Shown here one piece after another: positions 1 through 18,885 of a stretch of 64,000 nt of DNA (positions are counted from its first letter, which is position 1; every line of letters begins with the position of its first letter). Origin of the DNA: an uncultured Alphaproteobacteria bacterium (lineage in GTDB: Bacteria > Pseudomonadota > Alphaproteobacteria > Rs-D84); contig CALXLG010000001.1 of the NCBI GenBank assembly GCA_944389135.1, positions 89,421-153,420 of the forward strand. Direction: 5' to 3'. The notes beneath the pieces are model-generated. The model saw only the letters and a list, made by a program, of their open reading frames with translations. It was not told the DNA's origin and did not search any database. The position numbers and the translations under genes were made by a program.

Positions 1-4
1 AAAT

Positions 5-721
5 ATGAGCGGACACAGTAAATGGCATAACATTCAGCACAAAAAAGGTGCGAATGACGCAGCTCGTAGCGGTTTGTTTACGAAGCTGGCACGTGAAATA
101 ACAATGGCGGCAAAGTTGGGTGATAAAAACCCTGATAATAACCCTCGTTTACGTTTGGCGGTTTTGAATGCACGTAAAAATTCTATGCCAAATGATAATA
201 TCAAGCGCGCAATAGAAAAAGCTTCTGGTTCTAATACAGAAAACTACGTTGCTGTGCGCTATGAAGGTTATGGACCGGGTGCAGTTCCTGTTATTGTAGA
301 GGCTTTGACCGATAATCCACGTCGCACAGTTCCTGAAATTCGTAATATTTTTGCTAAAAACGGTGGTAATATGGGTGAAGAGGGCAGTGTTGTCTTTATG
401 TTTACGCGCGCAGGTCAGATATTTTACCCAAGCTCAATTGGTAAAACAGAAGACGAAATGATGGAAATCATCATGGATGCAAATGCAGATAATTTAGAAT
501 CTTCTGAAGAAGGTTTTATTATCACAACTAAACCAGACGATTTTATGACTGTTCAAAAAGCACTAAGCGATAAGCTGGGCGAGCCAGAAAGCGCCGAATT
601 GACTTGGATTCCAAATATGCCAATGGATTTAGATGATGAGGCTTATGCAAAAATAGAAAAGCTGGTTGATGCATTAGATGATAATGATGACGTTCAGAAA
701 GTATTTACTGCTGCTGCATAA
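5..721 (+). CDS. yebC: YebC/PmpR-family transcriptional regulator
   Basis: 238-aa ORF; N-terminal MSGHSKWHNIQHKKG signature typical of YebC; followed by ruvC as in many bacteria. Confidence 0.9.
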   Translation: MSGHSKWHNIQHKKGANDAARSGLFTKLAREITMAAKLGDKNPDNNPRLRLAVLNARKNSMPNDNIKRAIEKASGSNTENYVAVRYEGYGPGAVPVIVEALTDNPRRTVPEIRNIFAKNGGNMGEEGSVVFMFTRAGQIFYPSSIGKTEDEMMEIIMDANADNLESSEEGFIITTKPDDFMTVQKALSDKLGEPESAELTWIPNMPMDLDDEAYAKIEKLVDALDDNDDVQKVFTAAA

Positions 722-803
722 CGCTTGATTTATAAAAAAAAATAAAAAGTGTCGCTTTTGCGGCACTTTTTATTGTATAATTTATTTAACAAGGATTTTT
801 TAG

Positions 804-1283
804 ATGGTACGAATTATTGGAATTGACCCCGGGCTTTTACATACAGGTTGGGCTGTTATAGAAAAAAATGGAAATAACCGTAAGTATGTTGCAAGTGGGG
901 TGGTGTTGCCACCTAAAATGGAAAGTTTACCTAATAGATTGGCTTTTATTTTTCGTGAAGTTTCCAAACTTTGTGAAACTTTTCAACCTGACGAGTGCAG
1001 TATAGAAATTACATTCGTAAATAAAAACCCTCAGACTACATTAGTGCTTGGGCATGCACGTGCGGCAGCAATTGTTGCTGTTGCTGATAAAAATATACCA
1101 ATTTTTGAATATGAACCAAATAAAATAAAAAAAGCACTGACGTCTGCTGGGCATGCAGATAAAGAACAGGTTTATAAAATGGTTCGCATTTTATTACCTG
1201 CGGCACAACCAAAAACACCAGATGAAAGTGATGCAATCGCAATTGCATTGGCGCATGCTAATATGAGTAAATTCGGTTTATAA
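804..1283 (+). CDS. ruvC: Holliday junction resolvase RuvC
   Basis: 159 aa; MVRIIGIDPGL N-terminal catalytic Asp motif; RuvC length and context after yebC. Confidence 0.9.
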   Translation: MVRIIGIDPGLLHTGWAVIEKNGNNRKYVASGVVLPPKMESLPNRLAFIFREVSKLCETFQPDECSIEITFVNKNPQTTLVLGHARAAAIVAVADKNIPIFEYEPNKIKKALTSAGHADKEQVYKMVRILLPAAQPKTPDESDAIAIALAHANMSKFGL

Positions 1284-1333
1284 AATACTTTGCTTTATGG
1301 TATGATATAAATATAAAACCAAAGGAGCAGCCC

Positions 1334-1615
1334 ATGAAGAAAGATTTTATCGAAACTCAAAATCTGAAATTATTATCAAAACAGCGTATATATTTTAGGG
1401 CGTTTTTGATAAATCTGGCGTTGGTTGTTTTGGTTTGGCTTTTGACGTTATGTCCTCAATTCATGTATTTTGCTGTTCGTATAACAGGAATTTCTTTGCC
1501 TTATCTTTATGTTTCGGCAATAAGCTTCTTGGCGATTTGGAAATTAGCGGGCGTTGTTTTCTTCTTAATTCCGGCAATTGCAATTTGGTGGGAAAGAAAG
1601 ATGTTGAAGAAATAA
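1334..1615 (+). CDS. small hypothetical membrane protein
   Basis: 93-aa ORF with RBS-like aaggag upstream; mostly hydrophobic; no recognisable family. Confidence 0.3.
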   Translation: MKKDFIETQNLKLLSKQRIYFRAFLINLALVVLVWLLTLCPQFMYFAVRITGISLPYLYVSAISFLAIWKLAGVVFFLIPAIAIWWERKMLKK

Positions 1616-1616
1616 A

Positions 1617-1645
1617 CAAAAGCCGGCATTTGCCGGTTTTATTTC
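1617..1645. terminator. bidirectional Rho-independent terminator (CCGGCATTTGCCGG hairpin)
   Basis: GCCGGCA-TT-TGCCGG palindrome flanked by A-run and T-run, between convergent ORFs. Confidence 0.55.
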
Positions 1646-1968
1646 CTAAAACTTATTTTATCAACCGCGTCCCTGCCAAAGTACTTATTTATTTTATCTT
1701 TAATCTCATTTGACATATAAGATAATTGCAGGGCAAGGGCAGGGTTAGTCGGTCTTATAATAATATTGAATTTATTTTCGCGTGTTTTCTTAATAGCAGC
1801 AATATTTGCAACACTCGATATTTCAGGCCCCATTATTTCAGACCATCTGGCAACCAGGTCTGAATCAGATGCACGAATGCCAAATATTTTTAATAAACCG
1901 CCCATTGCACCCGCAATTGTTTGCGGTCGTGATAGGCGGTTATTTATTTTATTTTGTTGGTTTGACAT
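1639..1968 (-). CDS. DUF721-family (DciA-like) protein
   Basis: 109 aa; pattern LVARWSEIMGPEI...NIIIRPTNPALALQLSYMSNEIKDKINKYFG resembles DUF721 domain proteins common in alphaproteobacteria. Confidence 0.55.
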   Translation of the reverse strand: MSNQQNKINNRLSRPQTIAGAMGGLLKIFGIRASDSDLVARWSEIMGPEISSVANIAAIKKTRENKFNIIIRPTNPALALQLSYMSNEIKDKINKYFGRDAVDKISFRK

Positions 1969-3052
1969 AACTATATTCTTTTGGCATCAAGATAAACATT
2001 TGACCTTGTGCGTGCTGACCATGTGCAAATTTATATGCTTCATCACCTTTGCCAAAGAATATATCTGCACGTATCCAACCACGTATTGCGCTGCCTGTAT
2101 CTTGGGCAATCATTAAGCGACTGAATCTACGCCCGTCTGATAAATTTGTGTCTATATAAACTGGCATTCCTAATGTATATATGTCGTCATCCATCGCAAT
2201 TGATCGTATCTTGGATAGAGGAGTGCCAAGCTTTCCAATAACATCTGGTGGAACAGATTCATAGAAGTATACATATCGTGGGTTATTGTATATGACTTCT
2301 TTAGCCAGTGCTGGATTCTTTTTCAAATAGCGCCATACCGCATCAGCAGAATATCCACCGTCTGGTCTGATTCCACGATTCTTTAATTGTTCCCCGATAG
2401 ACTTAAATGGCATATCATTAACCGCTGCAAAGTTTAATTTTACCATTGTGCCGTCTTCTAGCTGCAACATGCCACTACCTTGAATTTGAATGTTTTGAAC
2501 GTCTACAATATTTGCCCAGTACAAAACACGACCAATTTTGCTTTCTACAATTGTTTTCTTTGGTACGCCTTTATAGTTGCGACCATCTGTTGGAACACCC
2601 ATTAATGGTTCATTACACTGTGCTGTTTTAGTTCTGCATCCTGGAATTATAGGTGAATAATATCCAGTGTATGTTCCGCGTTTGCCACCCTCGTCGTTAT
2701 AAACTTGGTATGGTTGAAAATTTGATTCAAACCATGCACGAACAGTTGCAACGTCTGCGCTGGCACTGGGTAACATTCTGCACTTTTCTTCAAATAAAGC
2801 CCTGTCTGGTATTACGCGACCTGTGTATTGAATCTTTGCTTTGCAAGAATTACGAAAAGCCTGCAAAGCGTATCGTACATCGTCGTTATCCCAACCTGGT
2901 AAATCGTCATAAGAAACTTTTCTTAAATTTGATGGTATAACGGAATTATCACCACTATGTGTCGGAGTTGATAAATCGCAAGAAGTAAGCGAAAACATTA
3001 CACAAAGACTAAGTAAAGCTTTAATAAAACTGTTTTTTAAAGAAACAGACAT
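1949..3052 (-). CDS. mltA: membrane-bound lytic murein transglycosylase A (MltA, 3D domain)
   Basis: 367 aa; lipoprotein-like signal peptide (LTSCD); QGSG...3D-domain motif DTGSAIRG near C-terminus, resembling E. coli MltA. Confidence 0.75.
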   Translation of the reverse strand: MSVSLKNSFIKALLSLCVMFSLTSCDLSTPTHSGDNSVIPSNLRKVSYDDLPGWDNDDVRYALQAFRNSCKAKIQYTGRVIPDRALFEEKCRMLPSASADVATVRAWFESNFQPYQVYNDEGGKRGTYTGYYSPIIPGCRTKTAQCNEPLMGVPTDGRNYKGVPKKTIVESKIGRVLYWANIVDVQNIQIQGSGMLQLEDGTMVKLNFAAVNDMPFKSIGEQLKNRGIRPDGGYSADAVWRYLKKNPALAKEVIYNNPRYVYFYESVPPDVIGKLGTPLSKIRSIAMDDDIYTLGMPVYIDTNLSDGRRFSRLMIAQDTGSAIRGWIRADIFFGKGDEAYKFAHGQHAQGQMFILMPKEYSYVKPTK

Positions 3053-3159
3053 TTTGTTGTCCCCCCACTTGTAAAACTTAAATCATAATGCTATATTATC
3101 ATAAAATCGGGTGCTAAGTCCAGATGGGTTTTTTATCCCGCCAAAAAGGAGTAAAAATA

Positions 3160-3588
3160 ATGGCAAATTTTAAAATTATATCTCAGTTTTTAAAAGATAT
3201 TTCTTTTGAAAGCCCAAATGTACCAGAATTATTCTTTAAGCAGGATAATGGTCAGGCAAAAATAGAAATTAATATTGATATTCAAATCAAAGGCGCAGAA
3301 AACAATCTGTTTATGGTTGATTTAATCACAAAGGTTCATTCAAAGTTAGAAGCAGGGGATAAATCAATCTTTTTAATTGAATCTACTTATTCTGGTCTAG
3401 TTCAGTTAGAAGAAGAAAAAGACGAAGAAGCTAAAAAACGTACTTTGTTGATTGACGTACCGACGTTACTGTTCCCAGCTGTACGTGCATTGATTTCACG
3501 TCTTACAAGTGAATCTGGTTTCCCAACATTTGTTATGCAACCAGTTGACTTTGCAAAACTTTATGAAGAAAGACAAAATAAAAAATAA
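3160..3588 (+). CDS. secB: protein-export chaperone SecB
   Basis: MANFKIISQFLKDISFESPN N-terminus typical of SecB; AAGGAG RBS 8 nt upstream of ATG at 3160 (ORF-track start 3124 likely too long). Confidence 0.85.
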   Translation: MANFKIISQFLKDISFESPNVPELFFKQDNGQAKIEINIDIQIKGAENNLFMVDLITKVHSKLEAGDKSIFLIESTYSGLVQLEEEKDEEAKKRTLLIDVPTLLFPAVRALISRLTSESGFPTFVMQPVDFAKLYEERQNKK

Positions 3589-3605
3589 AAACATATTTAG
3601 TTATG

Positions 3606-3636
3606 TAAAAAATCCGCGTTAGGCGGATTTTTATTT
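3606..3636 (+). terminator. Rho-independent terminator after secB
   Basis: ATCCGC-GTTAG-GCGGAT hairpin followed by TTTTTATTTT. Confidence 0.6.
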
Positions 3637-3663
3637 TGTGTTTTTTATGATATAATATGACGT

Positions 3664-4848
3664 ATGGCTAAAGACAAATATATTTCAGTAAAAAGCGGTG
3701 TAAGTGGTTTTTCTTTTGCGAACCTAGGTTTGTTTACTGGGTTTGCTGATGGTATTTATAACGCAGTTTATTCATTGGTTTTGTTAGAAATTTTTAAAAA
3801 TTCTGCAATTGTCGGTATTTATGTTGCTATATATGCGGCATTTTGTATGTTTGTTGGGCTTTTTGCAAATGAAATATTTCGGCGATTTTCAAGGGTAAGG
3901 GTCTTTTATTTCGTAATGCTGATGCTGGCTGTTTGCTATGCGATGATGAGTTTTTCTATTCGTCCAAGTACTTTTATTATTCTGGACTATGTAACGGGTA
4001 TTGCTATTACGTTAGTCGGGGTTCTGATACCGCTGTTTATGTCTGATTTTTCTAAAAATATTGGTATGGCAAAATTAAATTCTAGGTACCATTTGTGGTT
4101 AAATATTGGTGCACTGTTTGCGCCAATGATAGCTGTTGCAATTGCAGATGAATTTACAAATAGGGCGGCATTTTTTGCATCGGCTTTAATATATTTTGCA
4201 GGTTGGATGTCGTTTAAGTTCTTTCGTGTTGTGCAAGAAGACAAAAAAATTACACCAGTTAACCCAAGAAGAACTTTTAAAGCTTTGTGGAAAAATACGA
4301 TTGCATTTTTTTCGCGTCCTGGAATGCCAAGGGCTTATTTTGTGAATTTTGGATATTATTCATTGCGTGCGATGCGATATCTATACGTGCCGATTGTTGT
4401 TATTGAAAACGGTTTTTCAAAAGATACGCTTGGTTGGGTTTTGACTTTGGGAATAATACCGTATCTTTTCTTGTCTGAAATGATGGCAAAGCTTGTCAGA
4501 AAGTACGGTAAAAAAATGTGGTTGATGATAGGGTTCTTATCTTTTGCAGGCTTTTCTGCGTTGGCAACTTTAGTTACAGGGTTCCCATTGCTGGCTATAT
4601 TTGTATTGTGGCAAGTATCTGGCGCATTAATGGAATCTGTACACGATTTATTGTTCTTTGATAGTGCAAAAAAAACAGAACAAACAAAGTATTATGGAAT
4701 TTTTAGAACAAGTGTGAACTTGCCAAATGTTATTGCACCTATATTTGGTGCCGCGTGCATCGCGATATTTGGGGCAACTTCTGCCGTATGGATTGTGACC
4801 GCTGTAATCGGGGGGCTGTCCGCATTGGTTTTGGCAAGTAAAAAATAG
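3664..4848 (+). CDS. MFS-type transporter (predicted 12-TM permease)
   Basis: 394 aa, repeated hydrophobic segments consistent with a 2x6 TM major facilitator; no specific substrate signature. Confidence 0.5.
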   Translation: MAKDKYISVKSGVSGFSFANLGLFTGFADGIYNAVYSLVLLEIFKNSAIVGIYVAIYAAFCMFVGLFANEIFRRFSRVRVFYFVMLMLAVCYAMMSFSIRPSTFIILDYVTGIAITLVGVLIPLFMSDFSKNIGMAKLNSRYHLWLNIGALFAPMIAVAIADEFTNRAAFFASALIYFAGWMSFKFFRVVQEDKKITPVNPRRTFKALWKNTIAFFSRPGMPRAYFVNFGYYSLRAMRYLYVPIVVIENGFSKDTLGWVLTLGIIPYLFLSEMMAKLVRKYGKKMWLMIGFLSFAGFSALATLVTGFPLLAIFVLWQVSGALMESVHDLLFFDSAKKTEQTKYYGIFRTSVNLPNVIAPIFGAACIAIFGATSAVWIVTAVIGGLSALVLASKK

Positions 4849-4924
4849 CTGTAAAAAAACTTATTTTCGTTGCGTAAAGGTTAAATTCCTTGTATGATTT
4901 TGAATAAAAGAAAAGGGGAATTTT

Positions 4925-6001
4925 ATGGCAAAAAAAGAAGCAGTAAAAGAAAGTAGCGCGCCAGCAAAAAATCCAGCATTAGAATCGGCTTTGGCGCAAA
5001 TTCAAAAACAATTCGGTAAAGAAGCCATTATGAAAATGGGTGATGGCAGTCAGCAAAATATAGAGGCTATTTCATCAGGGTCTTTGGGGTTAGATATTGC
5101 GCTTGGTATCGGTGGATATCCTCGTGGGCGTATTGTTGAAATTTATGGACCGGAAAGCTCTGGAAAAACGACGTTGGCATTGCATGCTGTTGCAGAAGCG
5201 CAAAAAAAAGGCGGAACTTGTGCATATATAGATGCAGAAAATGCTTTGGATCCAACTTATGCGAAAAAGCTGGGTGTTGATGTTGCAAACTTAATAATTT
5301 CACAACCAGATTCAGGTGAACAAGCATTGGAAATTGCGGATACTTTGATAAAGTCAGGTGCGGTTGATGTCGTTGTTATTGATTCTGTTGCGGCGCTGGT
5401 TCCAAAAGCTGAATTAGAAGGAAATATCGGTGATTCGTTTGTTGGTACAACAGCGCGTCTGATGAGTCAGTCTTTGAAGAAATTGGCGGGCAGCGTTTCT
5501 CGTAGTAATACTTTATTAATATTTATTAATCAGATTCGTATGAAAATTGGTGTTATGTTTGGAAATCCTGAAACAACGTCTGGTGGAAATGCATTAAAGT
5601 TCTATGCGTCTGTACGTCTTGATATTCGTCGCACAGGTCAAATTAAAGATAAAGAAAATATTATCGGCAATGAAACGCGTGTAAAGGTTGTTAAAAATAA
5701 AGTGGCGCCACCATTTAGAACGGTCGATTTTAAAATTATGTATGGCGAAGGAATTTCTAGAATTAGTGAAATTCTGGACATGGGTGTAAAATATGACCTT
5801 ATTGAAAAGGCAGGTAGTTTCTATTCTTATAATAATGAACGTATGGGGCAGGGTGAAGCAAATGCGCGTGCTTGGTTAAAAGAACACGAAGATGTTCAGA
5901 AAGAACTGTTGGATAAAATTATGGCACGTGCCAGTGGAATTGCGGAAGAAATGACAACTGGGCCAATAGATGATGAAGAGTCTTCGGTTGTTGAAGAATA
6001 A
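4925..6001 (+). CDS. recA: recombinase RecA
   Basis: 358 aa; Walker [10 protein letters not shown], RecA signature [14 protein letters not shown]; acidic C-terminus. Confidence 0.95.
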
Positions 6002-6012
6002 AAGGAGATAAA

Positions 6013-6921
6013 ATGAATCTAGCACGGGCAATAGCGATGTCTGACGTAATATTGCGTGGACATATCTTAAATTGGTTCTGGCGTAGTCGTGAACATAGAC
6101 GTGCTGTTAGAAGTGATGTTATTTCTAATGTTATACCAAGATATTTTAAGCGCTATTTGCCCGCTGCAGCTGCAATACCAGAACGTAAGGTTGTAAAAAA
6201 TGATAAAAATGAAAAGATTTTTACAATCTGGTTGCAAGGGGAAGAAAATGCACCTGAACTAGTAAAAGCCTGCTTTCGCAGTGTAAGAAAAAATTGTAAG
6301 CAAGAATTAGTGGTTTTAGACGAAAAAACTTTATTTGATTATATAAAATTACCAGATGTAATAATGAAAAAACGCAAAAAGGGTATGATAAAAAATGCTC
6401 ATTTTGCTGATATTTGCCGTGTAGAGTTATTGTATAATTATGGTGGTTTTTGGCTGGATTCTACGGGGTTTGCAACAGGCCCGATTCCAGATTGGATTGT
6501 TAAAGAAGATTTCTTTGTTTATTTAGCTGGGCAAAATGTCGGCAGCCCGTACAGCTTTATGCAGAATTGCTTTATTCGTAGCAGAAAAGGGGCGTATTTA
6601 TTAGACGCTTGGCGGGCGATGATTTTAGATTATTGGACACATGAAAATCATAATTTTGATTATTTTATGCATCAATTGTTATTTAAGACTTTGGTTATGA
6701 ATGACGCGCGTGCAAAAAAATATTTTGCCAAAATGCCACATGTTGATCAAGACCCAACACATATGCTTTGGTGGACTTATCAGAATAAACCTTTTGACCA
6801 AAAGACTTTTGATGAAGTAACGTCTGGTGCGTTCTTTCAAAAACTGACATATCGCGGTGCGGATAAACCAGTACCAGGTAGCTTTGCAGATGTTATGATT
6901 AATAAAATGTATAAAAAATAA
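6013..6921 (+). CDS. glycosyltransferase, Caps_synth/DXD-motif sugar-binding family (PF05704-like)
   Basis: 302 aa; IWxQGEENAP...LLYNYGGFWLDSTGF pattern matches the capsular polysaccharide synthesis protein / Gly_transf_sug family. Confidence 0.55.
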   Translation: MNLARAIAMSDVILRGHILNWFWRSREHRRAVRSDVISNVIPRYFKRYLPAAAAIPERKVVKNDKNEKIFTIWLQGEENAPELVKACFRSVRKNCKQELVVLDEKTLFDYIKLPDVIMKKRKKGMIKNAHFADICRVELLYNYGGFWLDSTGFATGPIPDWIVKEDFFVYLAGQNVGSPYSFMQNCFIRSRKGAYLLDAWRAMILDYWTHENHNFDYFMHQLLFKTLVMNDARAKKYFAKMPHVDQDPTHMLWWTYQNKPFDQKTFDEVTSGAFFQKLTYRGADKPVPGSFADVMINKMYKK

Positions 6922-6934
6922 TAAAGGAAATAGA

Positions 6935-7969
6935 ATGCCAGCTGTCTCTATTATTATCCCTGTTTATAATGTAGAAAAATATTTACGTCGTTGCTTGGAT
7001 AGTGTGTTAAATCAGACATTTAAAGATTGGGAAGCAATATGTGTAAATGACGGCAGTCCAGATGGTTCTGCCGCTATTTTGTCCGAATATTCTGCACGTG
7101 ATTCTAGATTTAAGGTTGTGAATAAAGAAAACGGTGGCTTGTCTGATGCGCGTAATGCTGGTATGAAAATCGCAACAGGTGAATATGTTTTGTATGTCGA
7201 TAGTGACGATTTTATTCATCCCCAGACATTAGAAATTACTTATGCTTTGGCACAGCGGGATAATTCTGACATTGTGTCTTTTACTTATGATAGAATATAT
7301 CGCCCACAGCTGATGGTTCGGCATAAATTAGGGCTAAGTACAGACGATATTGTTCCAAGTAGAATATACAAAAAATATAATGTTTCACATGTCAAGACGT
7401 TAACAACAGATGATGTGTTTGCGTATGCAACCGAAAGTGCACATAATGCTTTTAACCCTAACAAAAAATGGCTGATAAAACATTGTCAGGTTTGGAAGAA
7501 TTTATATCGTCGAGATTTAATTGCGGATACACCGTTTATAAAAGGAATTTTGTTTGAAGATTTTCCTTGGTGGAGTGCGATTATGCTTAAAAAACCACGT
7601 GTAACTATTTGTCCATTGCCGCTGTATTTTTATATACCTAATTTTGGTGGAATTGTTTTATCTGCAAAGCAATTGCGAATATTACAAAGTTTGTGTGATG
7701 GACTAAAAGCTTCTTATTTATTATATAAAGAAAAAGCAGATGATTATCAGATGCAGCAATGGTCCGAAAAGTTTAAGTGGTTCTTTATTAAGTGGGCGTT
7801 TAGAAAAGTAAAATACCTGGATAATAATGAAGATATTGAAATTGCTGTTAAACGTTTTTGCGAACTTGAACAAATCGGGACTTTTGATAATCCTACAACA
7901 AAATGGGCAAAAAAACTGCGTTGTGATATCCGTAAGTTTATAAAAGGGAAGTGCAAAAAAAATGTCTGA
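6935..7969 (+). CDS. family 2 glycosyltransferase
   Basis: 344 aa; N-terminal IIIPVYNVEKYLRRCLDSVLNQT...DGSPDGS...DSDD GT2 (GT-A) motifs. Confidence 0.8.
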   Translation: MPAVSIIIPVYNVEKYLRRCLDSVLNQTFKDWEAICVNDGSPDGSAAILSEYSARDSRFKVVNKENGGLSDARNAGMKIATGEYVLYVDSDDFIHPQTLEITYALAQRDNSDIVSFTYDRIYRPQLMVRHKLGLSTDDIVPSRIYKKYNVSHVKTLTTDDVFAYATESAHNAFNPNKKWLIKHCQVWKNLYRRDLIADTPFIKGILFEDFPWWSAIMLKKPRVTICPLPLYFYIPNFGGIVLSAKQLRILQSLCDGLKASYLLYKEKADDYQMQQWSEKFKWFFIKWAFRKVKYLDNNEDIEIAVKRFCELEQIGTFDNPTTKWAKKLRCDIRKFIKGKCKKNV

Positions 7970-8978
7970 GGCTGCTTTGGTTTCAATTGTTGTGCCTGTA
8001 TATAATGCAGAAAAATATCTGCATAGATGTTTGGATAGCCTTTTAAACCAATCTTTTAAAAATTGGGAAGCCGTATGTGTAAATGATGGCAGTACCGATT
8101 CTTCTGAAGAAATATTATCTAAATATGCCTCGCTTGATTCCAGGTTTAAGATAATTAATAAAGAAAACGGCGGGGCATCTGATGCACGTAATGTCGGAAT
8201 AAAATATGCCAAAGGTAATTATGTTTTGTTTTTAGATAGCGATGATTTTATTCATCCACAAACTTTGGATATGACATTTGATTTAGCAGAAAAACAAAAT
8301 GCGGATATTGTGATGTTTGATTTTGATGCTAAATTTCATGCAGCAACATTGAAAAAAATGAAGCGCGGTATAAATGTTATGAAGCTGTTGCCCGAAAATC
8401 GTAATAAGATATATAAAAAGAATCGGGTGTCATATCGGGTTACTAATGAACCTTTATTCCATTGTACCGAAAAAAACAGAGGTTTGTTTGTTAAACGTCC
8501 TATACATAGACATTGCTTTCCTGTTCTTGCATTGTATAAACGTGATTTAATAAAAGATATTCCTTTTATAAGCGGAATTATAATAGAAGACTTTCCTTGG
8601 TGGTGCGATGTTTTGTTGCATAAACCCAAAGCGGTCATAACAAAGTTACCTTTATATTTTTATATGCCAAATCCAACTTCTGCATTAAACAGTACTAGGG
8701 CTTTGCATATGATAGAGTCTATTGCAAAAGGGATAGAGTATATTTTTCCTAAATATAAAAATACCGCGACTAAAAAAGAATTTGAGCATTTTAATAAAGA
8801 ATTTTTGTGGCCGTTTTTGATAGTTATTATGCGTAAAACAAAAGATTTAGATAATCGCTTTGACGTGCAGGTTGCAAAGCGCGTTGTTGCAAACTTGTAT
8901 AAACAAGGCGTTTGTGATAAACCGCATAGTTTGCGAACAAGAAGATATCGCAGAAGAATAAAAAAGTTTATTAAATAA
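7962..8978 (+). CDS. family 2 glycosyltransferase (tandem paralog of 6935-7969)
   Basis: 338 aa; SIVVPVYNAEKYLHRCLDSLLNQS...DSDDFIHPQTL; clearly paralogous to preceding gene over the first ~120 aa (by eye); 8-nt overlap with it. Confidence 0.8.
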   Translation: MSEAALVSIVVPVYNAEKYLHRCLDSLLNQSFKNWEAVCVNDGSTDSSEEILSKYASLDSRFKIINKENGGASDARNVGIKYAKGNYVLFLDSDDFIHPQTLDMTFDLAEKQNADIVMFDFDAKFHAATLKKMKRGINVMKLLPENRNKIYKKNRVSYRVTNEPLFHCTEKNRGLFVKRPIHRHCFPVLALYKRDLIKDIPFISGIIIEDFPWWCDVLLHKPKAVITKLPLYFYMPNPTSALNSTRALHMIESIAKGIEYIFPKYKNTATKKEFEHFNKEFLWPFLIVIMRKTKDLDNRFDVQVAKRVVANLYKQGVCDKPHSLRTRRYRRRIKKFIK

Positions 8979-8981
8979 ATT

Positions 8982-9827
8982 TTATATATTTAATTCTTTA
9001 AATCTTTCTGGAATTTTTGCGACCCATTTTAAGCCAAGCATCGCAGGTTTGTTCATGTCGTATATAGGGCGCAGGAAGGTCTGCAAGATTCTTGCTGCCT
9101 TTATAGATTTATTTTTGTTTTTTGATTCTGTTATAATTTCTATCGTTCTGGCGCGCTTTTTTAGGTGCTTTTCCCAAGATGGGTTTCTGTCGCCAATTTT
9201 GTTTTTTATCATATCTAAATCAACACCACCAAAATGTAATAAGTATAAATTTTTATCAATATGGAAATTATGACCTTTTACGCTGTGAAAACCGCTGCCC
9301 CAGGTTGCTGGTTTCATCAAAACAACAGGTTTGGTATATCTTGTTGATAGTAAAGCATAGTTTCTTTGTTCTAAAAAGTTTTTATTCATATCTAATTTCT
9401 TTTCAGAATTTAAATCTTGACCGATATCTAACCCCAGACCAGAAACAGATGTTTTGTTCTTTATTGTTGATAAGTATTCCTTTAAAGAAATGTTAAGGGC
9501 AGGGTCAATAATTAAAAATTCATCACAATCACAACCGATAACAATATCATAACCTTTTTTGAACAGTTCGTTGGCTAGACTTGATAACAAAAGAATTCTT
9601 GTTTTGTCACCACGTTGTACGGCTTCTTCTTTGTGAGGTAATTTTTTTATGTTTGCTTTTCCTGCATTAGATGGTGCGGTTTGGTCTATGCCATCTAAGT
9701 AAATATATAAATTTTCTGTGCCAATTTGTTCGCCATAATATTTTATCCAGCGACTAAGAAAAAAGTCATCGTTTCTTGCCATAGTGATGGCGGCAATCCG
9801 CTTTATATTGAAAGAATTCTTTTTCAT
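8982..9827 (-). CDS. GT2-like glycosyltransferase (Glyco_tranf_2_4 / PF13704-like)
   Basis: 281 aa; ITMARNDDFFLSRWIKYYGEQIGTENLYIYLDGIDQ resembles TMVKNE...W..YH...G..hfyIYDN motif of that family. Confidence 0.45.
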   Translation of the reverse strand: MKKNSFNIKRIAAITMARNDDFFLSRWIKYYGEQIGTENLYIYLDGIDQTAPSNAGKANIKKLPHKEEAVQRGDKTRILLLSSLANELFKKGYDIVIGCDCDEFLIIDPALNISLKEYLSTIKNKTSVSGLGLDIGQDLNSEKKLDMNKNFLEQRNYALLSTRYTKPVVLMKPATWGSGFHSVKGHNFHIDKNLYLLHFGGVDLDMIKNKIGDRNPSWEKHLKKRARTIEIITESKNKNKSIKAARILQTFLRPIYDMNKPAMLGLKWVAKIPERFKELNI

Positions 9828-10672
9828 ATCCCCTCTACAAAAATTTTGCGTAAAGCATAGGTAATTTTTCTAATGATTATTTTAATCGGATTTTTTGTTA
9901 AAAGCCAGTTTATATATTTTTCCCCGTATACTCGTTTTGCATTTATTAATATCACATCAGAAACATTTTTGTTTGTATGATTTAATACATATAATATTTG
10001 ACGACCTAATTCACCATTGTGTCTGGTAAATGCCGCTTTTTTGATAAAAGGCAAACCTTGTTGGTAAAGGCTTTTGACATTGTTATATATTTTTCTGCCA
10101 GATACACTATATAGACAATTCCATTTAAGACCATGGTCTAAAACAAGCTTTGAAAAACCTTGTTCGTATAATTTTGTTACAGTTCCTTTGTCGGATTGTT
10201 TTTTTATGCTGCAAATAAATTTATCAAACCAATCGGTTAGAAAAACTTTTCGTGTGCAACCTATAAACCAAGATTGTATATGCGGATGTTTTGGATGCGG
10301 GTTGCAAACAAGACCGAAAGCATCGGTTTGCATATTTTCCATTTTATTTAAATATTCTGTAATGTCTTTTAATGGACCATATACAGAATCATTAACCAGA
10401 TATAAAAAATCGTAATTTCCTAAAATATTTTGTTTTTTTGCATATAAATATGCGCGTTTATAAGAACCAAAATCATATTCGCCATGTCTTGTTGCGTCAG
10501 AAAAAAGACAGGCTTTTTCAAATTTTTTAAGCTGTTCTTTATTGCAATCAGAATCCATAAATAAAATAACATCACCGTTTTTTTTGAGGCTTTGCACTAA
10601 ATATAGCAGAGATTGGTCTGCTATGTTTTGTGCGTCATATCCTGCAACTAAAAATAGTCGTTTAGGCTTCAT
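9824..10672 (-). CDS. putative polysaccharide/LPS biosynthesis protein (glycosyltransferase-like, family uncertain)
   Basis: 282 aa; LVAGYDAQNIADQSLLYLVQSL...LFMDSDC; co-oriented and overlapping with neighbouring GT gene; possibly RgpF-like but unverified. Confidence 0.35.
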   Translation of the reverse strand: MKPKRLFLVAGYDAQNIADQSLLYLVQSLKKNGDVILFMDSDCNKEQLKKFEKACLFSDATRHGEYDFGSYKRAYLYAKKQNILGNYDFLYLVNDSVYGPLKDITEYLNKMENMQTDAFGLVCNPHPKHPHIQSWFIGCTRKVFLTDWFDKFICSIKKQSDKGTVTKLYEQGFSKLVLDHGLKWNCLYSVSGRKIYNNVKSLYQQGLPFIKKAAFTRHNGELGRQILYVLNHTNKNVSDVILINAKRVYGEKYINWLLTKNPIKIIIRKITYALRKIFVEGI

Positions 10673-12497
10673 TGTTTTTTCTGGTCTTTTTACGAATATT
10701 GCTGTCTAACTCTTTTTTGCGTAGACGAATTGTTGCAGGCGTTACTTCAACCAGTTCATCATCTTGAATGTAAGACAAAGCTTCTTCTAATGACATTTTA
10801 CGTGGTGGCGCCAAGAATAACTTTTCATCTGCTGTTACAGAGCGCATATTTGTTAGTTCTTTACCTTTTATCGGGTTTACTTCCAAATCGTTTTCTTTAC
10901 TGTGTTCGCCGATAATCATTCCAGAATATACTTCTGTCTGTGGGCCAATGAATAATGTGCCACGTGGTTGCAAGTTAAATAAAGCATAAGTTGCAGCTGT
11001 GCCATTTTCCATTGATACTAATACGCCTGGTCTGTATTGCTGTATTGGTCCACGATATTCTTCGTATCCAGAAAAGACGCGGTTCATGATACCTGTTCCT
11101 CTGGTGTCTGTACGGAATTCCGATAAATAACCAATTAAACCACGTGAAGGTGCAGAGAATACAATTCTTGTTTTTCCAGCACCTGATGACTTCATTTCTG
11201 TTATTGTAGCTTTACGCTTTGTCATTTTTTCTATAACCACACCACTAAATTCATCGTCGACATCAATAACGACTTCTTCTATGGGTTCCAGTTTTTCACC
11301 GTTTTCACCTTCGTGCATTACAACACGTGGGCGTGAAACAGAAAGTTCAAATCCTTCACGACGCATTGTTTCGATTAATATACCAAGTTGCAGTTCTCCG
11401 CGCCCAGATACTTCAAATGCTTCATTGTTTTCACTTTGTGTAACGCGCAAGGCGATATTTGTTTCTGCTTCTTTGAATAAGCGTTCACCAATCATACGAG
11501 ATGTTAATTTCTTACCAGATTTCCCAGCAAGTGGCGATGTGTTAACAAAGAACGTCATCGTTAAGGTTGGTGGATCAATAGGCATTGCAGGAATAGGTTC
11601 AGTTACTTCTGGTGCGCAAAGCGTATCTGCCACAGTTGCTTTTGAAAACCCAGCAACAACGACAATGTCACCAGCAGATGCAGAATCTAGTGATACTTTT
11701 TCAACCCCACGATGTTCAATAATTTTTGTTATTTTGGCGTTTTCTATAAATTCGCCTTTCATGTTAATTGCTTTTACAGCTTGACCAACTTTTACTGTGC
11801 CTGATTCGATCTTTCCTGTTAATATTCTGCCGACATAAGGGTCTGCTTCTAGCGTTGTCGCCAGCATTTTAAAAGGTGCGTCAAGCTGACAGCGGGTACC
11901 ATTGCAATCTGGAGCAGGTACATGATCTATTATCAATTGAAATAAAGGTGTTAAATCTTTGTGTTCGTCGTTTAAATCGCGTACTGCCCAACCGTCACGC
12001 CCAACTGCATATAAGTATGGAAAGTCCAACTGAGAATCTGTCGCACCTAGCTTATCAAACAAATCAAATGTTTCTGTTAAGACTTCTTCTGGACGTGCAT
12101 CAGCACGGTCTACTTTATTTATACAAACAATAGGACGTAGTCCCAGTTTTAATGCTTTGGATAATACAAATTTTGTCTGTGGCAGTGGGCCTTCAGCTGC
12201 ATCAACTAATAATACTACACCATCTACCATAGATAAAATACGTTCTACTTCGCCACCAAAGTCTGCGTGCCCCGGTGTATCTACTATATTAATTTTATAC
12301 CCGTTCCATAAAATAGACGTTGGTTTTGCAGAAATAGTTATTCCACGTTCACGCTCAATATCCCCGCTGTCCATAACACGCTCTGCAACTTTTTCATTTT
12401 CACGAAATGTTCCTGCTTGTTTTAACATGTTGTCAACCAACGTTGTTTTCCCGTGGTCAACGTGCGCTATAATTGCAATATTACGAATTTTCATCAA
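10662..12497 (-). CDS. typA: translational GTPase TypA/BipA
   Basis: 611 aa; AHVDHGKTTL G1, DTPGHADF G3, NKVD G4; EF-G-like domains. Confidence 0.9.
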   Translation of the reverse strand: MMKIRNIAIIAHVDHGKTTLVDNMLKQAGTFRENEKVAERVMDSGDIERERGITISAKPTSILWNGYKINIVDTPGHADFGGEVERILSMVDGVVLLVDAAEGPLPQTKFVLSKALKLGLRPIVCINKVDRADARPEEVLTETFDLFDKLGATDSQLDFPYLYAVGRDGWAVRDLNDEHKDLTPLFQLIIDHVPAPDCNGTRCQLDAPFKMLATTLEADPYVGRILTGKIESGTVKVGQAVKAINMKGEFIENAKITKIIEHRGVEKVSLDSASAGDIVVVAGFSKATVADTLCAPEVTEPIPAMPIDPPTLTMTFFVNTSPLAGKSGKKLTSRMIGERLFKEAETNIALRVTQSENNEAFEVSGRGELQLGILIETMRREGFELSVSRPRVVMHEGENGEKLEPIEEVVIDVDDEFSGVVIEKMTKRKATITEMKSSGAGKTRIVFSAPSRGLIGYLSEFRTDTRGTGIMNRVFSGYEEYRGPIQQYRPGVLVSMENGTAATYALFNLQPRGTLFIGPQTEVYSGMIIGEHSKENDLEVNPIKGKELTNMRSVTADEKLFLAPPRKMSLEEALSYIQDDELVEVTPATIRLRKKELDSNIRKKTRKNNEA

Positions 12498-12651
12498 TAT
12501 ACCTTATCTTATTTCTTAATTTCTTTGTAACCCATAGATTATAACATATTTTTGCGTTTTCAAGAAATATGCGCTGTAAATAATTTATGGTATTTATTGC
12601 TTGACAGTTTGTAATATTTGTCTATATTACTATTAAAGTATTTTGTAAAAG

Positions 12652-13221
12652 GTGTTTTTTATGGTTTATTCTGTTAAAGAAAAAGAAGTTTATAATGCAA
12701 TAAAATCAGGCTTTTCTGCTTTCCATGATTTGGCGAAGCATAGCTTGAAAATAAGATGGAAAGATTTACCTAGAAATAAGAAGTATTCGGCTGCACGCGC
12801 TTTAGTATATATAAACGGTGTTGCTAAACAACCAGAAGAATATTTTGCGCGTAAGAATACTATTGATGCTTGGCTTGCACGTGCAGAAGAATATAGAAAA
12901 GAAAATAAAATTCCAAAAGATAGCGCAAAATGTGCATTTTATATTGTTTTTAGACCTATGGATTGTGTATGCGATAATGCAAGAGCTGCATTTACACAAA
13001 ATTTTGAACTAAGTAGGGAATTTTATAATTTTTGTGAAAAGGTTGAATGTTGGGAATATGAAAGGGTTTCTGATAAAAGGCTTGAATTGGCAAAAGATGC
13101 AGGGGAAAGAATAAAGAAAGATTCTAAAGATTTGTGTCAAATTGCAAACGTTAAGAATTCAAATATATTTGTTCGTCCTTTTAAATATATGGTTTATGCT
13201 GTAGCTCAAAAAATTAGATAA
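12652..13221 (+). CDS. hypothetical protein (orphan, several Cys)
   Basis: 189-aa ORF, no recognisable family; followed by a bidirectional terminator. Confidence 0.35.
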   Translation: MFFMVYSVKEKEVYNAIKSGFSAFHDLAKHSLKIRWKDLPRNKKYSAARALVYINGVAKQPEEYFARKNTIDAWLARAEEYRKENKIPKDSAKCAFYIVFRPMDCVCDNARAAFTQNFELSREFYNFCEKVECWEYERVSDKRLELAKDAGERIKKDSKDLCQIANVKNSNIFVRPFKYMVYAVAQKIR

Positions 13222-13248
13222 AAAACGGGGCAAGCCCCGTTTTTTAAT
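13221..13248. terminator. bidirectional terminator between hypothetical gene and serS
   Basis: AAAAACGGGGCAAGCCCCGTTTTTT: GC stem with A-run/T-run on both sides. Confidence 0.65.
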
Positions 13249-14524
13249 GCTTACCCCCAATCTTAGTTCTGCCACCCATTAGCGGTTGTAGCTTTTTAGG
13301 TATGTTTACAGAACCATCTGCATTTTGGTGATTTTCAAGAACAGGTACCAGTGCGCGTGGTACCGCTATACCTGTGTTATTTAATGTTGCAACAAACTTT
13401 ACGTCACCAGTTGCATTTTCGCGGTATCTTGTATTTGTTCTGCGAGCTTGGAATGTACCAATAGAAGAGCAACTGCCAAGTTCTTTATATGCGTTTTCAC
13501 TTGGAACCCATGCTTCTACATCGTTCATCTTAATTTTATTAAAACCCATGTCACCAGTAGAATTTGCAATTACGCGATATGGTAATTCTAAATCTTCCAT
13601 AACTTCGCACAGGTTATTTAATATGTGTTCGTGCATTTCATCAGACTGTTCGGGTTTGCAATAAATATATTGTTCAACTTTGTTAAACTGGTGAAAGCGT
13701 GCTAAGCCCCTTGTGTCGCGACCAGCTGCGCCTGCTTCTTTACGAAAGCACGGTGAAAAACCTGCATATTTTATAGGTAACGCATTTTCTGGCAGAATTT
13801 CACCACTGTGTAAAGAATTTAGAATGATTTCTGCTGTGCCTGCCAGGCATCTATCTGTATCCGTCAGCATGAAAACATCGTTATTCATTACAGACAAGTC
13901 TGAACCCATAAAATGTCCTGCATCAAATATTGTTTGTGGTTTTGTAATAGAAGGGCATTCTATAAAAGTAAAGCCTTTTGATATAAGCTTTTGAATAACA
14001 TAAGTTTCAATAGCAAGTTGTAATTCTGCGGCTTCGCCCATTAAGCAATAAGTACGCGTTCCGCAAATCTTTGCAATTTTTTCTGGTGCCCACCAATTGT
14101 TCATATCCAATAAATCCCACTGTGCACGCGGTGTAAAATCAAATGTGCGTGGAGTGCCAACACGGCGAACTTCTACGTTCGCACTGTCATCTGGACCAAT
14201 TGGTGCATCAGGACTTGGAATCTGTGGTACGCGATGTAATAAGTCATTTAACTTATTTTCTTTTTCTGCCAATTCCGCTAAATCTGCAGCAATTTCTTCG
14301 CTGATTCTTTTTGATTCTGCAATTAACGGTGCTTTATCTTTTGCTGTTGGAATTTCACGCGTTATTTTATTTTTTTCAGCAGTCATAGTTTGCGTGATTG
14401 TTTTAAGCTCGCGTACACGATTGTCTAGTATCAAGATTTCATCAACATGGTCGTCAAAACCCTTTAATTTGCATGCGTTTTTTACAACGTCTGGGTTTTC
14501 ACGAATAAATCTTATGTCTAACAT
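13244..14524 (-). CDS. serS: seryl-tRNA synthetase
   Basis: 426 aa; N-terminal coiled-coil MLDIRFIREN, class II motifs (FRKEAGAAGRDTRGL, GFSPCFRKE). Confidence 0.95.
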   Translation of the reverse strand: MLDIRFIRENPDVVKNACKLKGFDDHVDEILILDNRVRELKTITQTMTAEKNKITREIPTAKDKAPLIAESKRISEEIAADLAELAEKENKLNDLLHRVPQIPSPDAPIGPDDSANVEVRRVGTPRTFDFTPRAQWDLLDMNNWWAPEKIAKICGTRTYCLMGEAAELQLAIETYVIQKLISKGFTFIECPSITKPQTIFDAGHFMGSDLSVMNNDVFMLTDTDRCLAGTAEIILNSLHSGEILPENALPIKYAGFSPCFRKEAGAAGRDTRGLARFHQFNKVEQYIYCKPEQSDEMHEHILNNLCEVMEDLELPYRVIANSTGDMGFNKIKMNDVEAWVPSENAYKELGSCSSIGTFQARRTNTRYRENATGDVKFVATLNNTGIAVPRALVPVLENHQNADGSVNIPKKLQPLMGGRTKIGGKH

Positions 14525-14804
14525 TATTTATTCCTTTTATAAATTTTTTCTAAGATTGATTTTAATGCTATGCGAAGTAGTTCGCAATAAATAAGTAATT
14601 TTTATAATTAATAAAGTACCACCCCAAAAGGGGATGAGATTTTGCTGAAAAAGTTTAAGTAGTTTTTCATTATGTAAATAATAATATAACGTTAACTTAA
14701 TAAAATCAATAAAAAGTAGATACTTTTTGCAGTAAAAGAAAATGAATTGCGCACTTTCCCGTAATGTGTTATGCTGTGCCCCGAAAGATAAACAGGAGAT
14801 ATTT

Positions 14805-15716
14805 ATGAACGATATCATTATGCACGATGTTATTATTCTGGGGTCGGGGCCCGCAGGGCTTACGGCTGCATTATATTGTGCGCGTGCCGGTAAAAAGACT
14901 TTGGTCTTGGGGGGCGATAGGTTAGGTGGGCAGACTGCAGGAATCGCAGTTCTTGAAAATTATCCAGGTTGGCAGGGCAGTGGTCAGGAATTGGCCGAAT
15001 TTATGAAAAAGCAAGCCGAAACCTTTGGCGCAGAAATTATATTTACGTCTGCCAAGACAATTTCTGGTGATGCAGAAAGCGCATTTAATGTATTAACAAC
15101 AGATAACAAACGATTTGTTGGTAAGACAGTTATTATCGCAACAGGTGCTTCGCCACGTAAACTAGAAATAGAAGGGGCAAGGGAACTTTTTGGAAAAGGC
15201 GTATCTTATTGCGCAACTTGTGACGGGTTCTTCTATGCTTATAAAGATGTAATTGTTATGGGCGGCGGAAATTCTGCTTTGAATGATGCCTTGTATTTGG
15301 CGGATATTGCAAAAAGCGTAAAAATTGTTTATCGCAAGGGCGCTTTCACAAGGGCAGAGGCTGTTTTAAGAAATCGCGTTGCAGACCGTGAAAATATAGA
15401 ATGTTTGTTCAATACAGATTTGAAGAAAATTGCACAGTTGCCAGATTCAGATAGACTTGTAGTTACAACTACAGATGATACAGAAATTATCTGTGATGGT
15501 GTATTTGTTGCTATTGGACATGAAGCTAATACAGATTATTTATCAGAAGATGTGCCACGTGATAATATGGGGCGTTTAATACCATCTGAATTACCAGAAG
15601 GTATGTTTGTCGCTGGTGATGTGCAATCTGAAATAAAGATGCAAATTGCAACAGCTGTTGGTACAGGGTGCAGCGCAGCAATGGACGCAATAGCCTATCT
15701 TAATACCCGCGGATAA
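14805..15716 (+). CDS. trxB: thioredoxin-disulfide reductase
   Basis: DVIILGSGPAG FAD motif, CATCDGFF redox-active CxxC, GGGNSA NADPH motif; AGGAG RBS before ATG at 14805. Confidence 0.9.
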   Translation: MNDIIMHDVIILGSGPAGLTAALYCARAGKKTLVLGGDRLGGQTAGIAVLENYPGWQGSGQELAEFMKKQAETFGAEIIFTSAKTISGDAESAFNVLTTDNKRFVGKTVIIATGASPRKLEIEGARELFGKGVSYCATCDGFFYAYKDVIVMGGGNSALNDALYLADIAKSVKIVYRKGAFTRAEAVLRNRVADRENIECLFNTDLKKIAQLPDSDRLVVTTTDDTEIICDGVFVAIGHEANTDYLSEDVPRDNMGRLIPSELPEGMFVAGDVQSEIKMQIATAVGTGCSAAMDAIAYLNTRG

Positions 15717-15747
15717 AAAAAGTCCTGTTTTAACAGGACTTTTTTTA
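15716..15747. terminator. bidirectional terminator between trxB and J-domain gene
   Basis: AAAAAGTCCTGTTTTAACAGGACTTTTTTT perfect 9-bp stem. Confidence 0.65.
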
Positions 15748-16248
15748 TTTCTTTCCAAAGTGTTTCTTTAGTATTTCATATGCAGCGGAAATTTTTGTAA
15801 ATTGTATCGCAGATTGTTCTTTTTCTTTTGCGGTGTCGGGGTGATATTTTTTTGCAAGCATTCTATATTTTGCAGAAATTTCACGCCAAGATGCAGTTAT
15901 AGGTAATTCAAATGTTTTTAATGCAGAAACAACGTTAAATGGCAGTTTGCTGCGCGCTGGCATCTTATCAAAAGTCCCACGACCAGATATAAAGTCATTT
16001 AAGAATTTTACATAATCTGCTTCATCGGCATTTGCTTGTGCTTTGTCTTTTAATGGGGCACCAAATGTTTGGCGTTCCCAATCGGCTTCTATTTCTTCTG
16101 GTGTCATGTCCGCATAATAATTCCAGTTTTTATTGTATTCTGCGGCATGCTCTTTACAGAAAAACCAATAGTCTTTTAGTTCGCGCGTTTTGGGTGCACG
16201 ACAAGTACCGGCTTTTGTGCAGCCTGGATGATCACATTTCCTTATCAT
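15745..16248 (-). CDS. J-domain (DnaJ-like) protein with N-terminal Cys-rich segment
   Basis: 167 aa; C-terminal REISAKYRMLAKKYHPD J-domain with HPD tripeptide; N-terminal CDHPGC...C...FC cysteine cluster. Confidence 0.65.
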   Translation of the reverse strand: MIRKCDHPGCTKAGTCRAPKTRELKDYWFFCKEHAAEYNKNWNYYADMTPEEIEADWERQTFGAPLKDKAQANADEADYVKFLNDFISGRGTFDKMPARSKLPFNVVSALKTFELPITASWREISAKYRMLAKKYHPDTAKEKEQSAIQFTKISAAYEILKKHFGKK

Positions 16249-18879: not shown

Positions 18880-18885
18880 AAACTT

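Follow-up and report, generated by a model that had tools for sequence, protein, structure and literature searches.

The window analysed here is a stretch of 64,000 nt from an uncultured alphaproteobacterium of the Rs-D84 lineage (assembly GCA_944389135.1, contig CALXLG010000001.1, positions 89,421 to 153,420), in which five adjacent genes for glycosyltransferases (GTs) fill the interval between recA and typA. The genes are labelled GT1, GT2a, GT2b, GT4 and GT5 (Table 1), where the gene label GT4 is distinct from the accessory ‘GT4-type’ enzymes of related loci, which are Glycos_transf_1 enzymes. As the first-pass annotation of this DNA had recognised, the five genes form two tight convergent units, an arrangement with which both the exact open reading frame (ORF) coordinates and the Pfam matches of all five products agree. 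Spacing within the units is close. GT1 starts 11 nt past the recA stop codon behind an AAGGAG ribosome-binding site, and throughout the plus-strand GT genes ribosome-binding sites are present and the genes either overlap or are 11-13 nt apart. At the level of the sequence, the start of GT2b overlaps the stop of GT2a by 8 nt (ATGTCTGA), the stop of GT5 overlaps the start of GT4 by 4 nt (ATGA) and the start of GT5 overlaps the stop of typA by 11 nt (ATGAAGCCTAA). Comparison with relatives gives the new result that the interval is a locus at a fixed site, made up of glycosyltransferase genes only, in which a core of four genes is combined with variable slots. Within it, GT2b is the variable, recombining cassette, a feature that the first-pass annotation had missed.

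Table 1. Features of the recA–typA interval, in window coordinates
Feature	Position	Strand	Description
recA	4925..6001	+	ORF; conserved left anchor
GT1	6013-6921	+	ORF, 302 aa; Caps_synth / OCH1-like (GT32-type) glycosyltransferase; most conserved gene of the locus core
GT2a	6935-7969	+	ORF, 344 aa; family-2 (GT-A, inverting-type) glycosyltransferase; core gene
GT2b	7962-8978	+	ORF, 338 aa; ancient paralogue of GT2a; variable cassette of the locus
spacer	8979-8981	.	3 nt separating the two convergent stop codons; without terminator
GT4	8982-9827	-	ORF, 281 aa; Glyco_tranf_2_4-type GT-A glycosyltransferase; core gene
GT5	9824-10672	-	ORF, 282 aa; RgpF-family GT-A glycosyltransferase; core gene
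typA/bipA	10662-12497	-	ORF, 611 aa; conserved right anchor; Pfam GTP_EFTU/BipA_C on orthologues

All five proteins lie above the curated cut-offs in a Pfam scan. GT1 matches Caps_synth (PF05704, E 2.4e-65, 221 bits) and also Gly_transf_sug, the DXD family (PF04488, E 2.5e-6), while GT2a and GT2b both match Glycos_transf_2 (PF00535; E 2.3e-40, 139 bits, and E 9.8e-41, 140 bits, respectively). GT4 matches Glyco_tranf_2_4 (PF13704, E 5.6e-10, 40 bits against a cut-off of 27.5) and GT5 matches RgpF (PF05045, E 2.1e-18, 67 bits), covering profile positions 2-244 of 503. In terms of CAZy families, we take PF04488 and PF05704 to be GT32-like and PF00535 and PF13704 to be GT2; one GT1 homologue carries the JGI name ‘mannosyltransferase OCH1-like enzyme’. 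A full-length RgpF match accompanied by rgpA-E and rmlA-D partners was not found, the GT5 match being partial and the window holding no rgp or rml partner, and GT5 is an RgpF family member by domain only. For GT2a and GT2b the closest NCBIfam model is PRK10073, presumably the YibD/WaaH model, which is matched over nearly the full length at 136 bits against an equivalog cut-off of 423. With a score so far below that cut-off, GT2a and GT2b are not to be regarded as orthologues of the proteins which the model describes.

Conserved motifs and predicted folds are in line with these assignments. D92, D94 and D95 are invariant in GT2b, as are N94-D95-S96 and D40 in GT5, and GT4 has a DCDEF (DxD) motif (D100-C-D102-E103-F104) that is invariant in 7 orthologues. 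The AlphaFold2 models of GT2b and GT5, with predicted local distance difference test (pLDDT) values of 94 and 95, both have the GT-A fold. For GT2b the best matches in the PDB are 5hea (CgT/GalT1), RmlT, TarS and TarP, and for GT5 they are only remote, with template modelling (TM) scores of about 0.4. Sequence searches for solved structures gave no meaningful match for GT1, GT4 or GT5, even with a profile of GT4. Family assignments for all five proteins, with fold models for GT2b and GT5, show that all five are GT-A-type nucleotide-sugar glycosyltransferases. All are basic (isoelectric points 9.1-9.6), none of the five has a 19-residue hydrophobic segment, and GT2a and GT2b carry 10-11 Lys/Arg among their last 30 residues, features that fit enzymes bound peripherally to the membrane on its cytoplasmic side. 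The precomputed Pfam annotation is blank for GT4 orthologues that pass PF13704 on direct scanning.

Related loci, designated by L numbers, were drawn from the neighbourhoods of GT1 homologues, one close recA locus and 34 metagenome loci obtained in a scan with GT1. The 24 that include both recA and typA are the basis of the counts which follow. A common skeleton is present in all 24, in which recA is followed by the GT32-like gene, GT2a and a variable slot and then, convergently, by the GT2_4-like gene, the RgpF-like gene, optional extra genes and typA. In related loci typA is 88-100% identical, and GT1 is highly conserved, the best 120 of its 1113 homologues all being at least 77% identical. 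In every related locus recA lies directly upstream of the GT32-like gene, at a gap of 10-62 nt. Moreover, the skeleton persists in loci that have otherwise diverged considerably: it is kept in L089 and L091 despite an MFS protein that is only 56-57% identical and a rearranged block upstream of recA, and it is kept in L127, whose GT1 shares just 58% identity. In this regard, the first-pass annotation had described the cluster as ‘inserted’ and had proposed that relatives be compared for synteny, on the argument that a cluster universally present at the site would be core and not accessory. For four of the five genes this is what the relatives show, such that the cluster is an old and fixed feature of the lineage and its four-gene core not accessory.

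Composition does not set the cluster apart either. G+C content at third codon positions (GC3) is 0.22-0.30 in the five GT genes against 0.26-0.31 in housekeeping genes; the overall GC of the cluster is lower than that of recA and typA (0.31-0.36 against 0.39-0.40), and the difference arises from codon positions 1 and 2, in other words from amino-acid composition. No tRNA was found within positions 1-20000, nor any flanking repeats or mobility genes, and the only long repeat to emerge from a repeat search is that shared by the 5′ ends (300 nt) of the paralogues GT2a and GT2b.

Beyond the lineage, in more distant alphaproteobacteria (recA 69-72% identical), the genes after recA are unrelated and not those of glycosyltransferases. 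The convergence of recA and typA is wider than the Rs-D84 lineage, and may be older than the presence of GT genes at the site. In the Rhodobacteraceae locus L042 (9944-16487) the gene after recA is alaS, beyond which lies a convergent typA, and in nine further Rhodobacteraceae loci (L026, L038, L043, L047, L053, L058, L060, L064 and L076) a convergent typA lies 3-6 kb downstream of recA, alaS having been looked at in L042 only. The GT genes sit where L042 has alaS, which is not in the 64-kb window.

Around the core, the content of the locus is a mosaic. The 24 loci show at least 12 architectures, the recA–typA locus ranging over 4.7-7.6 kb and 5-8 genes. The third plus-strand slot may hold GT2b, a 380-aa GT4-type enzyme (Glycos_transf_1), a short GT2, a Stealth gene or a NUDIX gene together with a GT4-type one, or it may be empty; in about half of the related loci GT2b has given way to another gene or is missing. 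The stretch that separates the RgpF-like gene from typA may hold GT61, GT8, GT2, GT92, GT6 (the blood-group-transferase type), HtrL_YibB or a second RgpF. Individual examples include a Stealth hexose-phosphate transferase in the variable slot of L124, Stealth, NUDIX hydrolase and GT92 enzymes among the accessory genes of L124, L113 and L102, and a GT6 histo-blood-group-type transferase in L126 (300-aa ORF, PF03414, E 2.5e-21), the last of which hints at possible mimicry of host glycans. The non-core content of the 24 loci is limited to GT families together with Stealth, HtrL_YibB and NUDIX, and none of the 24 contains a flippase, a polymerase, an ABC transporter, an initiating phosphoglycosyltransferase or a sugar-nucleotide pathway.

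The behaviour of GT2b is best seen in a conspecific comparison, that of the window with L093 and L094. Outside GT2b the flanks are about 96-97% identical, with values of about 93-100% per 300 nt, and the encoded proteins are correspondingly close (recA 99%, typA 100%, GT1 98%, GT2a 95-98%, GT4 97-98% and GT5 97-98%). GT2b is the only divergent gene, at 71-72% amino-acid and ~74% nucleotide identity. The drop in identity spans ~7950 to ~8950 at a resolution of 50 nt, and the last ~30 nt of GT2b are identical. By the Nei-Gojobori method, the synonymous divergence (dS) of GT2b is 1.07, as against 0.03-0.32 in eleven neighbouring genes, with a ratio of nonsynonymous to synonymous divergence (dN/dS) of 0.18. 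Given the jump in dS and the low dN/dS, the two alleles are to be seen as old, selectively maintained and brought into the same background by homologous replacement, not as products of fast change in place; in other words, the comparison shows gene-sized allele replacement at GT2b under purifying selection. For the window's own allele, the nearest non-self relative among 5.8 billion proteins is 72% identical and the next 60%. Chimerism of a metagenome-assembled genome (MAG) or assembly could be excluded as the cause of the divergence, in that each allele was found more than once, on independent contigs and in the same gene neighbourhood: the window allele and its neighbours are found at 100% identity in two independent assemblies, and the other allele on at least three contigs.

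Further variation at GT2b is seen in L003, where a 13-bp tandem duplication, TTTTTATGGCCAT, splits the orthologue (L003 2482-3505, compared with L002 9948-10976) into 290 and 52 aa. An 18-bp in-frame deletion is present as well, and the gene otherwise differs from that of the near-identical L002 by one single-nucleotide polymorphism. The split gene is either a natural knock-out or an assembly error, and as a broken gene it suggests that the step is dispensable. The divergence of the window from L001 and L002 was set aside as an instance of diversifying change, those two genomes belonging to a different species (about 78% nucleotide identity overall), and the conspecific comparison with L093 and L094 was used in its place. 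Phase variation by simple repeats was likewise rejected, as there are no G/C tracts in the locus and only an A8 (7955-7962) and a T8 (10578-10585), a density that is not clearly above that of the rest of the window.

GT2a and GT2b are homologous over their full length, with 45% identity over 334 aa (E 5e-106). The identity is unevenly distributed, at 63-70% in residues 1-120, the donor-binding half, 53% in residues 181-240 and 17-30% in residues 121-180 and 241-330. The paralogy over the first ~120 aa that had been noticed at the outset is therefore confirmed, but the duplication is not recent, as had been proposed from the 8-nt overlap. Neighbour-joining analysis of 28 sequences places the GT2a and GT2b genes of the lineage in a clade each, and the mean pairwise identity between the sets (44%) is lower than that within the GT2a set (64%) or the GT2b set (51%); the duplication is an ancient one. 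Nor can its age be deduced from the overlap, because overlaps occur in 13 of the window's 46 co-directional gene pairs. At the DNA level the two genes are 74% identical over their 5′ 300 nt (6944-7243 and 7980-8279), which is high enough to allow unequal or homeologous recombination between them close to the left breakpoint of the GT2b cassette. The protein collection files GT2a and GT2b, in spite of their 45% identity, in one nominal 90%-identity cluster.

With regard to transcription, no good match to a promoter was found between recA and GT1, and the plus-strand GT genes are likely to be co-transcribed with recA. Regulation of such a recA–GT operon by the SOS response was considered and dropped, as no alphaproteobacterial GTTC-N7-GTTC box and no E. 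coli-type box was found ahead of recA. Of the sigma-70-like promoter matches in the region, the best is at 12601-12628 (TTGACA-16-TATATT), upstream of a 189-aa ORF on the plus strand (orf189, 12652-13221) that has no Pfam match and is a very rapidly evolving gene, with 46% identity in L002 against 95-98% for the flanking genes. On the minus strand, co-transcription of GT4 and GT5 with typA, which had been proposed from the overlaps, is possible in the window but is not a conserved arrangement: the overlap between GT5 and typA is found here and in the simplest architectures, whereas L087, L089, L099 and others have additional genes between the RgpF-like gene and typA, some of them on the opposite strand.

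That the two units end 3 nt apart (8978 and 8982) with no terminator hairpin, as originally reported, is borne out both by the sequence, in which no terminator-like site was found at the junction, and by folding of 8920-9040, which on either strand is no better than that of shuffled sequence (z about -1). What is not borne out is that this junction is special. Across relatives it varies from a 23-nt gap to a 20-nt overlap, and within the window 5 of the 9 convergent gene pairs either have a gap of at most 3 nt or overlap; the other four of these five, at 31113/31114, 39661-39664, 46221-46236 and 60756-60766, have a 0-nt gap or an overlap of 4-16 nt. Terminator-less convergent junctions are, in other words, a genome-wide habit in this organism, and the tightness of the GT junction is a consequence of a compact genome (the window is ~94% coding) and not a property of the locus. 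By contrast with the GT junction, a perfect hairpin with a 12-bp stem and T-runs on both sides lies at 13219-13246, between the convergent orf189 and serS, and looks like a bidirectional intrinsic terminator.

The proteins of the window occur identically in public metagenome assemblies, and the 90% cluster of recA contains Candidatus Enterousia scatequi, Candidatus Enterousia onthequi and MAGs named ‘Alphaproteobacteria bacterium’, from which the source organism appears to lie near Candidatus Enterousia, in the order Rs-D84. Enterousia belongs to this uncultured order of gut bacteria, whose genomes are mostly <1 Mb and lack the tricarboxylic acid (TCA) cycle, respiration and flagella (PMC12306168). 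The window encodes an LptF/LptG permease for the export of lipopolysaccharide (LPS) at 17252-18310 (E 1e-45), and also LolA, Lnt, TatC and SecDF, which together suggest a diderm envelope with probable LPS export; its remaining content is housekeeping. No further polysaccharide genes occur in the 64 kb beyond the locus itself, no lpx or kdt genes were seen there, and neither GT30 or GT9 enzymes (Kdo- or heptosyltransferases) nor waaL were found in the locus, in the 24 related loci or in the window. The locus and window are similarly devoid of an oligosaccharyltransferase (PglB/PglL/O-antigen-ligase-like) and of a flippase.

What, then, might these enzymes make? The reading that we favour, with moderate confidence, is that this is a fixed-site locus for the stepwise assembly, at the cytoplasmic face of the membrane, of a strain-variable surface glycan of the lipooligosaccharide (LOS) kind. 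Working on the cytoplasmic side of the inner membrane, the five soluble GT-A enzymes would draw on nucleotide sugars and add one sugar after another to a lipid-anchored acceptor, most likely lipid A-core. Flipping and export of the resulting lipooligosaccharide-type glycan would fall to proteins whose genes lie elsewhere, those of the Lpt system among them. The GT2b alleles would represent old functional lineages, swapped by homologous recombination through conserved neighbouring sequence, such that strains of one species would differ in one glycosidic step. Lipid A-core is preferred as the acceptor because the locus contains GT genes only, because GT8 and HtrL_YibB are among its accessory genes, because PRK10073 is the NCBIfam model nearest to GT2a and GT2b and because there are Lpt genes in the window. 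Moreover, the best structural matches of the GT2b model are GT2 enzymes that decorate with a single sugar. Inference extends to what the acceptor is, in which order the steps follow, which sugars are used, whether the product lies at the surface and what selects for its variation, be it phage or host immunity. The earlier suggestion that this is the main surface polysaccharide or LPS-core locus can be retained to the extent that a role in a surface glycan or the LPS core is plausible, with LptF/LptG, LolA and Lnt all encoded in the window.

Several points weigh against this assignment. The locus and the 64 kb hold no GT9, GT30, waaL or lpx gene, and the connection to lipid A-core would be one of analogy; Caps_synth, RgpF and Stealth are best known from the synthesis of polymers (capsule, rhamnan) and not of LOS; the locus lacks the homopolymer tracts for phase variation that LOS loci typically have; PRK10073 is matched with a score far short of its cut-off; and the source organism is uncultured.

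The most serious competitor is that the enzymes build or decorate a polyprenol-linked polymer, such as a capsule, an O-antigen or a rhamnan-like chain, with its initiation, its transporter (ABC or Wzx/Wzy) and its ligase encoded elsewhere. The names of Caps_synth and RgpF do derive from capsule and rhamnan synthesis, and in streptococci and lactococci RgpF extends a rhamnan whose export depends on an ABC transporter (PMC9574508). The Stealth hexose-phosphate transferase in the variable slot of L124 and the resemblance of GT2b to TarS, TarP and RmlT, which decorate teichoic acids, point in the same direction. However, neither the 24 loci nor the window contains a transporter, an initiating transferase, a polymerase, a chain-length regulator or a dTDP-rhamnose gene, the RgpF match extends over only half of the profile, and a genome of <1 Mb leaves little room for a dispersed polymer pathway (PMC12306168). 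We regard a polymer product, on balance, as rather unlikely.

Less probable still, and in our view doubtful, is glycosylation of an acceptor other than LPS, whether a surface or periplasmic protein (O- or N-linked), a membrane glycolipid or a periplasmic glucan. Clusters of GT genes alone do serve protein glycosylation too, the solved structure closest to GT2b (5hea) is that of a Streptococcus enzyme which builds a protein glycan, and no gene of the locus names its acceptor. Yet an oligosaccharyltransferase and a flippase are lacking from both locus and window, flagella, a common target of glycosylation, are reported to be absent from the lineage (PMC12306168), and the accessory GT8 and HtrL genes point to the LPS core. 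Finally, a horizontally acquired island, recently inserted between recA and typA, with a recent tandem duplication and operons that collide at a special terminator-less junction, is very hard to credit, for while the lower GC of the cluster, its tight overlaps and 3-nt junction, and the lack of GT genes beside recA in more distant alphaproteobacteria might be adduced in its favour, it is opposed by the presence of the four-gene core at the site in all 24 loci, very divergent ones included, by a GC3 equal to that of housekeeping genes and a GC deficit confined to codon positions 1 and 2, by the lack of tRNA, flanking repeats and mobility genes, by paralogues that are 45% identical and reciprocally monophyletic, and by the equal tightness of 5 of the 9 convergent pairs in the window.

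Returning to the favoured lipooligosaccharide-like glycan, the closest analogue of the locus in organisation and evolution is the LOS locus of Campylobacter jejuni, which has conserved ends and a variable middle of GT genes, falls into 23 classes and has evolved by gene gain and loss, recombination and small indels (PMC7248181). The two have in common a fixed site between conserved genes, a content of mostly single-step glycosyltransferases and an association with the gut; in both the end genes are conserved while the middle varies by gain, loss and recombinational allele replacement, and in both a GT can be inactivated by a small indel, here the 13-bp duplication in L003. They differ in that the flanks here are recA and typA and not heptosyltransferase genes, that there are no waaC, waaF or lgtF homologues, sialic-acid genes or homopolymer tracts, and that the present locus is smaller (4.7-7.6 kb and 5-8 genes).

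Other fixed-site systems offer partial parallels. GT8 is the family of RfaI/J and LgtC, and the waa (rfa) locus of E. coli is echoed by the closeness of GT2a and GT2b to PRK10073 among NCBIfam models and by the GT8 and HtrL_YibB genes that occur at the same site in relatives, although heptosyltransferases, kinases and a ligase are missing here. WaaH adds glucuronic acid (GlcUA) to a heptose of the LPS core (bioRxiv 10.1101/536201). The sharp, gene-sized jump in dS against a near-identical background resembles what is seen at O-antigen and capsule (cps) loci. The O-antigen locus (galF-gnd) and the pneumococcal cps locus (dexB-aliA) are fixed-site serotype loci in which old and highly divergent alleles are exchanged by homologous recombination across conserved flanks. 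Those loci, however, include flippase, polymerase and sugar-nucleotide genes and are replaced as whole clusters, whereas here single GT genes are exchanged and there are no genes for export or polymerisation.

At the level of the individual enzyme, the GT2b model superposes best on TarS and TarP (S. aureus), RmlT (Listeria) and the Streptococcus CgT/GalT1 (5tze, 6h1j, 8bz4, 5hea) with Foldseek E values of 3e-20 to 1e-14 and TM scores on the target of up to 0.78, and the sequence matches to these proteins fall over the N-terminal, donor-binding half of GT2b. Each of them is a GT2 enzyme of the GT-A fold which transfers one sugar onto a glycan that has already been formed. They are nevertheless only 19-26% identical to GT2b and act in Gram-positive cell walls, and the C-terminal helical part of GT2b (~240-338), which is the most variable part between both paralogues and alleles, differs from theirs.

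No new mechanism is implied by these comparisons; the pattern is well known from variable loci for LOS, O-antigen and capsule. The interest lies in where it is found. Rs-D84 and Candidatus Enterousia are widespread, uncultured gut bacteria with genomes of <1 Mb (PMC12306168), and a lineage that has neither a TCA cycle nor respiration retains 5-8 GT genes at one site and swaps one of them between strains; that these genes should be kept and exchanged suggests that contact with hosts, partner cells or phages is made in large part through the surface glycan. In practical terms, the variable middle between conserved priming sites in recA and typA provides a marker for strain typing, and the locus provides a short list of enzymes for glycan chemistry.

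A more ambitious version of the favoured reading, which we put forward only tentatively and consider unlikely in its full form, is that this would be the serotype-determining locus of Rs-D84/Candidatus Enterousia, in which old GT alleles, including the putatively host-mimicking GT6, would be exchanged across strains and species under frequency-dependent selection by phage or immunity, with the plus-strand GT genes carried on the recA transcript. If this were so, expression of the surface glycan would be coupled to that of recA by way of the shared transcript, and old allelic lineages of GT genes would have been maintained in spite of genomes of <1 Mb.

Two observations concern genes elsewhere. 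A 672-aa ORF on the plus strand (34736-36754) comprises a YbeY endoribonuclease domain (aa 13-134) followed by the apolipoprotein N-acyltransferase domains LNT_N and CN_hydrolase (aa 182-628); ybeY and lnt are either truly fused here or have been joined into one ORF by the mechanical calling. In L094 trmE and ruvA are separated by a Peptidase_S8 gene (214-1359), at a site upstream of where the window begins; neither L093, which is otherwise near-identical, nor the arrangement in L001 and L002 includes this gene, which is another small presence/absence difference between close relatives.

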